From NCBI RefSeq assembly GCF_044647545.1, contig NZ_CP172818.1: a DNA stretch of 64,000 nt. The stretch is one strand, 5' to 3'. Positions 5,029 through 5,825 of the stretch are shown one piece after another. The notes beneath the pieces were generated by a model. The model had not been told where the DNA came from. It saw only the letters and a program-made list of their open reading frames with translations, and did no database searches. Position 1 is the stretch's first letter. The number at the start of each line of letters is the position of its first letter. Source of the stretch: Escherichia coli. Lineage in GTDB: Bacteria > Pseudomonadota > Gammaproteobacteria > Enterobacterales > Enterobacteriaceae. The translations under genes and the position numbers were made by a program.

Positions 5029-5057
5029 TTGACGAGACGAGGCGAATCAGGTTTAAT
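5029..5057 (+). promoter_or_regulatory. Putative sigma70 promoter of pheV (-35 TTGACG, 17-nt spacer, -10 TTTAAT, GC-rich discriminator)
   Basis: TTGACG at 5029-5034, TTTAAT at 5052-5057, then GCGCCCC immediately before the tRNA 5' end, typical of stable-RNA promoters. Confidence 0.5.
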
Positions 5058-5067
5058 GCGCCCCGTT

Positions 5068-5143
5068 GCCCGGATAGCTCAGTCGGTAGAGCAGGGGATT
5101 GAAAATCCCCGTGTCCTTGGTTCGATTCCGAGTCCGGGCACCA
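5068..5143 (+). tRNA. pheV: tRNA-Phe (anticodon GAA)
   Basis: 76-nt sequence GCCCGGATAGCTCAGTCGGTAGAGCAGGGGATTGAAAATCCCCGTGTCCTTGGTTCGATTCCGAGTCCGGGCACCA with encoded CCA end; canonical E. coli tRNA-Phe. Confidence 0.97.
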
Positions 5144-5154
5144 ATTCATAAGAA

Positions 5155-5178
5155 CCCGCCCACAAGGCGGGTTTTTGC
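5155..5178 (+). terminator. Rho-independent terminator downstream of pheV
   Basis: CCCGCC-cacaa-GGCGGG stem-loop followed by TTTTT. Confidence 0.7.
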
Positions 5179-5288
5179 TTTTGGATCTGACAATAACCTT
5201 CACGAAAAAAATTAGCTTATAAAGTCTGGGGGAATTACTCTCGCCACGTTAACGAGAGTAATTTTATTGATATTAATCTCCTGATACC

Positions 5289-5825
5289 TTACCCCCGTCC
5301 AAACTCCAGTCGCTGCACATTCACCATCCCAGGCTTCTCAGCAGCACTGACATCAATTTGTGTCACCCGCAGCGCATATTTTTCATCCAGTGCTTTTAAC
5401 CAGTTCAGCAGGTCATTAAACACCACAGGTTCTATCCAGACTTGAATATTCTCCCCACGCTCGGCTATCCGCTTGATGACCACCGAGTGCGCGGAAGCAC
5501 TGTCACTGATGACCCGCGATACCTGCGCAGGCGTTGTTGTGGCAGATTTTCGCGCTGCAATAATATCCGGCGCAGTGCTCTTCAGTCGCGCGTTCATCGC
5601 CACGAGCTGCTGCAACATCGTCTCCTGTTGCTCAATCCGTTCGCTCAACGGCTGCCAGATGACGACGTAATATCCGACGCTAAACAGGAACACCACCGCT
5701 GCCAGTAACATGCCCTTTTCACGCGGAGAACGCCCCGCCAGGTGTTGTGTCAGCCAGTGTTCGCCACGGCTTAACTGGCGTTCACGCCATTGCTGAAAAT
5801 AGTGAATAAATTTATCGCGTAACAT
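5289..5825 (-). CDS. yghD: Type II secretion system protein M homolog (GspM-beta), 178 aa
   Basis: ORF track 178 aa with single N-terminal TM segment; start overlaps the stop of the upstream gene (ATGA). Confidence 0.9.
   Translation of the reverse strand: MLRDKFIHYFQQWRERQLSRGEHWLTQHLAGRSPREKGMLLAAVVFLFSVGYYVVIWQPLSERIEQQETMLQQLVAMNARLKSTAPDIIAARKSATTTPAQVSRVISDSASAHSVVIKRIAERGENIQVWIEPVVFNDLLNWLKALDEKYALRVTQIDVSAAEKPGMVNVQRLEFGRG

Follow-up and report, generated by a model that had tools for sequence, protein, structure and literature searches.

A K-12-shaped, island-free pheV locus in DNA of another Escherichia coli lineage: a probable product of reconstruction

The window, a 64-kb stretch of Escherichia coli DNA, carries an intact pheV tRNA gene with a single unoccupied attachment site (attB) in the arrangement known from K-12. 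The alleles on either side of the site are of the type found in the strain WP4-S18-ESBL-09 and its relatives, and this combination of WP4-type alleles with K-12 structure occurs in no complete E. coli genome searched. We infer, with a probability of roughly 70%, that the empty pheV site is the artefact of a K-12-biased reconstruction rather than a natural allele. This reading rests on the flanks identical to WP4-S18-ESBL-09, the K-12 spacer between them, the hybrid seams of that spacer, the K-12 joint in the gsp operon and the noise found elsewhere in the window. An island-free pheV is of little biological weight in itself; K-12 is the reference against which the pheV islands are defined. The chief value of the present analysis is as a quality warning for the window.

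The pheV gene and the secretion remnant downstream

The single tRNA gene detected by ARAGORN in the window is a tRNA-Phe (GAA) on the plus strand. It folds as a cloverleaf with a GAA anticodon, and the CCA end is part of the gene (ARAGORN, Rfam). Its score for the Rfam tRNA family RF00005 is 68.3 bits (gathering score 29, E 2.8e-14), and the alignment to MG1655 shows 100% identity with K-12 pheV. The gene had been named pheV by a sequence-only reading of this DNA, and its context confirms the name. The upstream genes are mltC-nupG-speC-yqgA and the downstream genes are yghD(GspM)-gspL'-gspC-gspS2-pppA-sslE. With speC-yqgA on one side and yghD on the other, the tRNA is pheV and not the sequence-identical pheU. 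The speC-yqgA context also matches the annotated loci of K-12, O157, WP4-S18-ESBL-09, IMT16316, FDAARGOS_497 and CLSC36. The features of the gene and its upstream neighbour are as follows.

4234-4962, plus strand: yqgA (DUF554), whose place upstream of the tRNA marks the locus as pheV; Pfam DUF554, E 4e-67, and annotated as yqgA in all genomes compared
5029-5057, plus strand: putative sigma-70 promoter of pheV; -35 TTGACG at 5029-5034, 17-nt spacer, -10 TTTAAT at 5052-5057
5068-5143, plus strand: pheV tRNA-Phe (GAA) with encoded CCA; ARAGORN, Rfam RF00005 and K-12 identity
5121-5143, plus strand, TTCGATTCCGAGTCCGGGCACCA: the 3'-terminal 19-23 nt of pheV, the attB core of P4-family integrases; one copy in the window
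5149-5185, plus strand (hairpin 5149-5177): Rho-independent terminator of pheV with the stem CCCGCC/GGCGGG and a T-run; terminator scan

Between 4978 and 5143 the window shows zero differences from MG1655, and up to 5287 the only differences are a 3-nt gap right after 5143 and a T>A substitution at 5148. The promoter is putative, its function being read from the sequence and from identity with K-12. A GC-rich discriminator, GCGCCCCG, directly follows the -10 element. A scan for strict consensus promoters called none between 4900 and 5400, and the pheV promoter was missed because its -10 element, TTTAAT, has no A at position 2. The first base of the -35-like TTGACG is also position 5029, at which the sequence-only reading had begun its feature.

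The terminator folds with -18.9 kcal/mol (z -4.55) on the plus strand and -17.1 kcal/mol (z -2.6) on the minus strand and, given the latter, may be bidirectional. It is kept after attR in island-bearing strains. An ORF on the minus strand that overlaps the tRNA (4895-5203) has no Pfam match and was not considered a gene. Sub-threshold Rfam matches to rnk_pseudo, P9 and mir-2774 lie far under their gathering scores and were treated as chance; the first two overlap the tRNA/terminator hairpin and the third lies in yqgA.

The stop codon of yghD (5289-5291) is found exactly 145 nt past the end of pheV, in agreement with the earlier claim that a type II secretion (T2SS) remnant begins about 145 bp downstream. 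The remnant and the genes beyond it read:

5289-5825, minus strand: yghD (GspM-beta), the last gene of the T2SS-beta operon; Pfam T2SSM, E 2.3e-46
5827-6720, minus strand: truncated gspL-beta (yghE); Pfam GspL_C, E 6e-49, and a weak, partial T2SSL match
6753-7748, minus strand: gspC-beta; Pfam T2SSC
6787-6791, no strand: gspD-K deletion joint, with about 8 kb absent relative to WP4-S18-ESBL-09
7766-8176, minus strand: gspS2/yghG pilotin; Pfam T2SSS_2
8242-9051, minus strand: pppA prepilin peptidase; Pfam Peptidase_A24
9180-13763, minus strand: sslE/yghJ M60 lipoprotein; Pfam Peptidase_M60/DUF4092

The truncated gspL-beta retains the C-terminal periplasmic domain and a mere fragment of the N-terminal domain, and its K-12 homologue is annotated as a pseudogene. 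From gspC to sslE (6753-13763) the gene order is collinear with both K-12 and WP4-S18-ESBL-09. An internal gspD-K deletion has been described in K-12 (PMC3707838).

An unoccupied attachment site

The sequence-only reading had described pheV as a well-known integration site, and the literature agrees. GI-pheV islands are present in 41 of 66 reference genomes, with MG1655 as the empty reference (PMC11537424), and the pheV locus next to T2SS-beta has been termed hypervariable (PMC3707838). Integration of an island would proceed by recombination of attP with the pheV attB, which would restore the tRNA at attL and leave a partial copy of 19-23 nt at attR. The attR repeats listed in Table 1 of PMC11537424 stem from the 3' 23-mer of pheV, TTCGATTCCGAGTCCGGGCACCA.

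The pheV 3' end is unique in the 64 kb, even when the search tolerates 4 edits in 23 nt, 3 edits in 18 nt or 2 edits in 15 nt, a range that includes the last 15-20 nt for which a search had been proposed. These tolerances are wide enough for every attR variant published for the 41 pheV islands of PMC11537424. They also capture the attR of the positive controls ampC_0069 and WP4-S18-ESBL-09, which reads TTCGATTCCGAGTCCGG-CACCA and is followed by the native flank and terminator. Because the attB core is single-copy, no integrase-borne island is inserted, and neither of the recombination products attL and attR is in the window. Two sites, at 29979 and 32681, match a 14-mer from the 3' end of pheV with 2 mismatches each. 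Neither match can be lengthened to 15-23 nt, and both were rejected as attR; the one at 29979 lies within a block that is 99% identical to a natural gene cluster.

A tblastn search of the 64 kb with the integrases of four pheV islands (O157 TR01, WP4-S18-ESBL-09, FDAARGOS_497 and IMT16316) gave no P4-type match at E<=1. In these four genomes the integrase gene begins 180-198 nt after pheV. From pheV to the conserved MG1655 flank there is no foreign DNA, and the alignment of 5144-9087 to K-12 has no large gap. Collinearity with K-12 holds over the whole window, mltC to ygiQ. The searches thus came up empty for the integrase, the direct repeat of the tRNA 3' end and the phage remnant that the sequence-only reading had reported missing, and the comparison with pheV-island strains that it had proposed gave the same picture: O157 TR01, ampC_0069 and WP4-S18-ESBL-09 have integrase, attR and foreign DNA, and the window has none of them. 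The junction strings of the empty site, as written in the window, are CACCAATTCATAAGAACC and GATACCTTACCCC; a pheV gene that runs into an integrase island gives the string AGTTCATATCAACGG.

A cryptically occupied site, in which a degraded island without integrase or attR follows pheV, is highly improbable and effectively refuted. Such islands have precedents, in that 14 of the 41 GI-pheV (34%) lack a recognisable attR or direct repeats (PMC11537424) and the O157 island has no attR and a large adjacent deletion. However, K-12 or core genes of WP4-S18-ESBL-09 explain the whole of 5144-24778, and between the tRNA and yghD there are no more than 145 nt, equal to the K-12 spacer. The sole element-like DNA, a garbled copy of IS3, lies 36 kb from the site.

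The architecture is a common one. pheV and yghD are contiguous in 1580 of 5426 complete E. coli genomes (~29%), of which about 1,190 are without the K-12 gsp deletion, and contiguity is combined with the K-12 gspD-K deletion in 389 of 5426 (7%). The remaining complete genomes have islands, kps or deletions at pheV. An island-free pheV beside a T2SS-beta remnant is therefore already known and is the textbook K-12 reference state. The description "unoccupied K-12-type state" given by the sequence-only reading holds for the architecture, that is the collinearity, the spacer and the gsp joint. It does not hold for the DNA, which is WP4-like and 96.5-97% identical to K-12, and the biological emptiness of the site is doubtful.

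WP4-type alleles, hybrid seams and damaged segments

The flanking genes differ from those of K-12 by 2-8%; over 9 kb the identity is 96.9%, and for sslE it is 92%. Across 43 of the 44 genes compared (sslE, with 31 gapped positions, was omitted) 840 codons differ from K-12 (734 synonymously, 106 non-synonymously) and indels are absent. These core differences are natural-looking, of the kind expected between lineages. That the window is E. coli K-12 or a close derivative with an ordinary K-12 locus has practically no probability left, and this reading too is effectively refuted. Gene order, spacer, terminator and gsp joint are indeed identical to K-12, as are yghO and glcC (100%) and, nearly so, glcD (99.9%). 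Nevertheless, the divergence just given stands against it, a 7.9-kb segment is found in place of the K-12 IS5, and WP4-type strains match at 100%. The flanking genes do not carry K-12-lineage alleles, which would indicate descent from the deletion's lineage of origin (96-97% identity to K-12 versus 100% to WP4-type strains).

The left flank, 1-5143, is 100.0% identical to FDAARGOS_497, IMT16316, MS6198, ECONIH1, WP4-S18-ESBL-09, CLSC36 and others. On the right, not a single mismatch separates 5284-6791 and 6787-24778 from WP4-S18-ESBL-09 (NZ_AP022098.1), and the remaining core segments are essentially identical to it. yghD, with no mismatches to WP4-S18-ESBL-09, is 97.0% identical to K-12. The 5-kb region around pheV has a best full-length match of 97.0% among complete E. 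coli genomes, which prompted us to consider a divergent, unsampled Escherichia lineage; this was rejected since its pieces are 100% identical to WP4-type strains.

These strains are organised differently at pheV. In WP4-S18-ESBL-09 pheV lies at 908297 and yghD at 821204, about 87 kb apart. Between the two genes are a P4 integrase, an island that includes toxin-antitoxin modules, an attR, a fragment of IS110 and the capsule cluster kps. Its gspC-M operon is complete, with gspD-K intact. In every relative inspected pheV is followed either by an integrase (IMT16316, FDAARGOS_497) or directly by kps (CLSC36). The attB of CLSC36 is empty of the integrase island, but kps is present and the 3' flank is different. 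In the window, 140 nt between WP4-type flanks follow the K-12 path instead. The parts of this junction are:

5144-5150, plus strand: left seam ATTCATA, a hybrid of the K-12 flank and the island left ends
5189-5283, no strand: K-12-type spacer of 95 nt from the pheV terminator to yghD, 100% identical to K-12
5284-5291, no strand: right seam ATACCTTA, which includes the yghD stop codon, a hybrid of K-12 and WP4-S18-ESBL-09

The spacer is the only clean K-12-specific (non-WP4-like) DNA in the window. It is absent from the WP4-S18-ESBL-09 and ampC_0069 loci, in which the kps region takes its place and reaches right up to the stop codon of yghD. Within the spacer is a perfect AT-rich inverted repeat of 11 bp (5233-5243 / 5253-5263; fold z -3.0 / -3.9). 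At the left seam the window reads CACCA ATTCATA AGAACCC, K-12 reads CTAATTCTTA, the attL of WP4-S18-ESBL-09 reads AGTTCATA and IMT16316 reads CTTATTCATA; relative to K-12 there is a 3-nt deletion and a T>A change. At the right seam the window has C at 5288 as in WP4-S18-ESBL-09 (ATACCT-A) and an extra T as in K-12 (ATACTTTA). Read over a longer span, the window has ATACCTTACCCC, K-12 has ATACTTTACCCC and WP4-S18-ESBL-09 has ATACCT-ACCCC.

Both hybrid seams (seam k-mers CCGGGCACCAATTCATAAGAACCCGCC and TATTAATCTCCTGATACCTTACCCCCGTCC) are found in none of the 5,426 complete E. coli genomes, the scope of the junction search being complete RefSeq genomes of the species. The best junction matches among them are 98.8% (676 nt) and 97.9% (233 nt, 5068-5300), and no island-free E. 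coli genome among the top matches has C at 5288. The left-seam 27-mer and the right-seam 30-mer were also absent from metagenome contigs, a weak result obtained without a positive control. In genome_contigs the left-seam 27-mer had no match and the K-12 control pattern was likewise absent, the junction not being sampled there.

The gspD-K joint has the same composite character. Over at least 101 nt (101/101) it equals the joint of K-12, yet it sits between WP4-type alleles. Its flanks are identical in K-12 and WP4-S18-ESBL-09 over 72 and 153 nt.

Could the composite have arisen naturally? A WP4-like isolate would have lost GI-pheV and kps, and separately gspD-K, via recombination with a K-12-like, island-free donor, which would have brought back the ancestral spacer and introduced the deletion of K-12. 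Loss and gain of whole islands within clones is documented (PMC11537424; PMC3707838), CLSC36 has the identical left flank without an integrase island, and identity extends over 72 and 153 nt around the gsp joint and over about 120 nt (tRNA plus terminator) to the left of the spacer. We nonetheless regard a natural empty site as unlikely. The right crossover would be confined to 4 nt (5284-5287), next to a WP4 allele, C at 5288, that is in no island-free genome among the top matches. Precise recombination does not predict the deletion and substitution of the left seam, which is in no complete genome. It is improbable that a clone without SNPs over 23 kb acquired two such minimal patches independently, and non-biological noise is found in the same window exactly at the other segments that K-12 lacks. 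It is very unlikely that a real WP4-like extraintestinal isolate reverted, shedding about 87 kb and gspD-K via ultra-short patches from a commensal donor and retaining a 3-nt scar beside attB. If true, this would be a case of natural wholesale 'de-virulencing' at the pheV hotspot.

The noise is the remaining line of evidence. K-12-shared DNA in the window is essentially perfect, and all five segments (5/5) of more than 1 kb that are present in WP4-S18-ESBL-09 and absent from K-12 are deleted or degraded. GI-pheV with kps, and gspD-K, are missing entirely, with the K-12 path in their place. Every other such segment is degraded in the window, as listed here.

24769-32703: yghO-yghQ cluster (fatty acyl-AMP ligase, spt, lptF/G-like genes and others); blocks of 99-100% identity alternate with blocks of 55-70%, with no long ORF
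40979-42031: IS3 between hybG and yghU; a copy that decays from 98% to ~55%, with a poly-C run of ~32 nt
61007-62019: yqhH-ygiQ; A-rich junk with poly-A runs replaces two hypothetical genes

In WP4-S18-ESBL-09 the yghO-yghQ cluster is clean, IS3 is intact and two extra genes lie next to ygiQ. The yghO-yghQ cluster is present in 3,239 genomes, and in the window its garbled version of 7.9 kb occupies the place of the K-12 IS5. Mismatches in the cluster are spread over the codon positions at 17.7/17.4/18.1%, with 431 transitions to 735 transversions. Such a pattern is random noise and not the product of evolution. For the 7.9-kb region, natural divergence of an allele and a group of pseudogenes were both considered and rejected, the mismatches being uniform over the codon, the transition to transversion ratio near-random and perfect blocks alternating with blocks of 55-70%.

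A K-12-biased reconstruction would drop or garble whatever K-12 lacks. The process could have been guided by a reference, as in an assembly or a consensus, or it could have been generative or of the in-filling type. Some observations speak against an artefact. No single simple pipeline accounts for all the features, and a pure reference consensus would not yield a noisy 7.9-kb cluster instead of IS5. The gsp deletion could in principle have been imported by a very short patch of natural recombination between its identical flanks, a relative with an empty attB exists in CLSC36, and draft genomes might hold a natural counterpart.

With reconstruction as the preferred reading, the window seems to show a different, island-bearing lineage in K-12 shape, with its accessory DNA deleted or turned into noise. 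The absences in the window (no island, no capsule genes, a T2SS remnant) are not to be read as biology until its provenance has been checked, and the same applies to the oddities at 24.8-32.7 kb, 41-42 kb and 61-62 kb.

Comparison with known pheV loci

The pheV-yghD region of K-12 MG1655 has the same tRNA, promoter region, terminator, 95-nt spacer and gspD-K joint as the window, and the distance to yghD is the same bar 3 nt. The window differs from it by the 3-nt deletion and T>A after CCA, by C rather than T at 5288, and by flanking genes that are 2-8% apart. Among occupied loci, the she PAI of Shigella is a P4-integrase island at pheV. The GI-pheV islands, which include PAI V of strain 536, OI-122 of O157 and GI-pheV of EC958 (PMC11537424), use the same attachment site, the 23-nt core of which is intact in the window. 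In contrast to them the window has no intP4, no attR and no foreign DNA.

WP4-S18-ESBL-09 and its relatives (FDAARGOS_497, IMT16316, MS6198, ECONIH1 and CLSC36) share positions 1-5143 with the window at 100% in all six genomes. Compared with WP4-S18-ESBL-09 the window is without the 87-kb pheV-yghD interval and the complete gspC-M. E. coli W offers a further parallel (PMC3707838). Its pheV, spacer and yghD are contiguous and island-free like those of the window, and a knockout primer used for W contains the same spacer sequence (PMC3707838). W has a complete T2SS-beta, however, whereas the window carries the internal gspD-K deletion of K-12.

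Alleles and seams of the core DNA

The genes gspD-K (approximately 8 kb) are missing from the T2SS-beta operon in both the window and K-12, but are present in the natural relative E. coli WP4-S18-ESBL-09 (WP4). The deletion joint at window 6787-6791 is identical to the K-12 joint. The alleles on either side of it, however, are WP4-type with zero mismatches and not K-12-type, the closest K-12 differences lying at 6715 and 6945. The combination of a K-12 gspD-K joint with WP4-type flanking alleles was found in no complete genome. In the exbD-yghA intergenic region (window 52902-52904) about 240 nt of K-12 are absent from the window and WP4 alike, and another 5 nt (ATCAT), present in WP4, are missing from the window. 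The site is one more imprecise seam.

Features of the core DNA.
9090: 1-nt deletion relative to WP4, pppA-sslE intergenic region
9180-13763: sslE, 92% identity and numerous indels relative to K-12 sslE, identical to WP4
40359: T/C substitution relative to WP4, in yghU
50222-51262: gpr, premature stop relative to K-12

The sslE of the window is a natural allelic variant. The premature stop in gpr is likewise found in WP4, where the gene is annotated at 1023 nt. The differences at 9090 and 40359 are the isolated single differences in core DNA that is otherwise identical to WP4.

Stretches that diverge from their natural counterparts

Three longer stretches depart from the relatives.
24769-32703: 7.9-kb stretch occupying the K-12 IS5 position
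40979-42031: 1.05-kb insert between yghU and hybG
61007-62019: 1.0-kb A-rich low-complexity stretch between yqhH and ygiQ

The natural counterpart of the first is the yghO-yghQ cluster, which contains a fatty acyl-AMP ligase, an epimerase, an ACP, a serine palmitoyltransferase, lptF/G-like genes and YtfJ. Blocks of 99-100% identity to WP4 are interleaved here with blocks of 55-70%, and no long ORF is present. The mismatches to WP4 are evenly spread over codon positions and have a transition:transversion ratio of approximately 0.59. The pattern is one of non-biological corruption.

The insert between yghU and hybG is a shortened, noisy version of an IS3-family element that occupies the same site in WP4. 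Its identity is 93-98% at 41200-41500, dropping to about 55%. Within it are a fragment of HTH_21, a poly-C tract some 32 nt long (approximately 41094-41125) and more C and A runs. The A-rich stretch contains poly-A runs of more than 30 nt (e.g., 61611-61641). Where the window has this stretch, the natural relative carries two hypothetical genes of approximately 1.6 kb, to which identity is only 35-70%.

The pheV site and its neighborhood

The pheV island of O157:H7 TR01 carries an integrase, espL2, nleB and nleE but lacks an attR. It adjoins a truncated pitB, which indicates that the entire T2SS-beta/sslE/glc/yghO-yghT region (window approximately 5.2-36 kb) is deleted there.

Feature of the 95-nt K-12-type spacer.
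5233-5263: AT-rich inverted repeat with perfect 11-bp arms, AATTACTCTCG / CGAGAGTAATT, and a 9-nt loop, directly downstream of yghD

Either strand of the repeat can fold (z -3.0 and -3.9), but the yghD strand has no clear U-tract. Both K-12 and E. coli W conserve the repeat, which may serve as a hairpin at the operon end.

Comparison of the ampC_0069, WP4 and CLSC36 loci identifies window 5188/5284 as a second variable point, which adjoins pheV and does not depend on the integrase site. Capsule-bearing strains have a kps region in place of the spacer; it follows an IS110 fragment and lies in the interval from the terminator of pheV to the stop codon of yghD. In CLSC36 attB, the 3' end of pheV, is empty, yet kps is still present.
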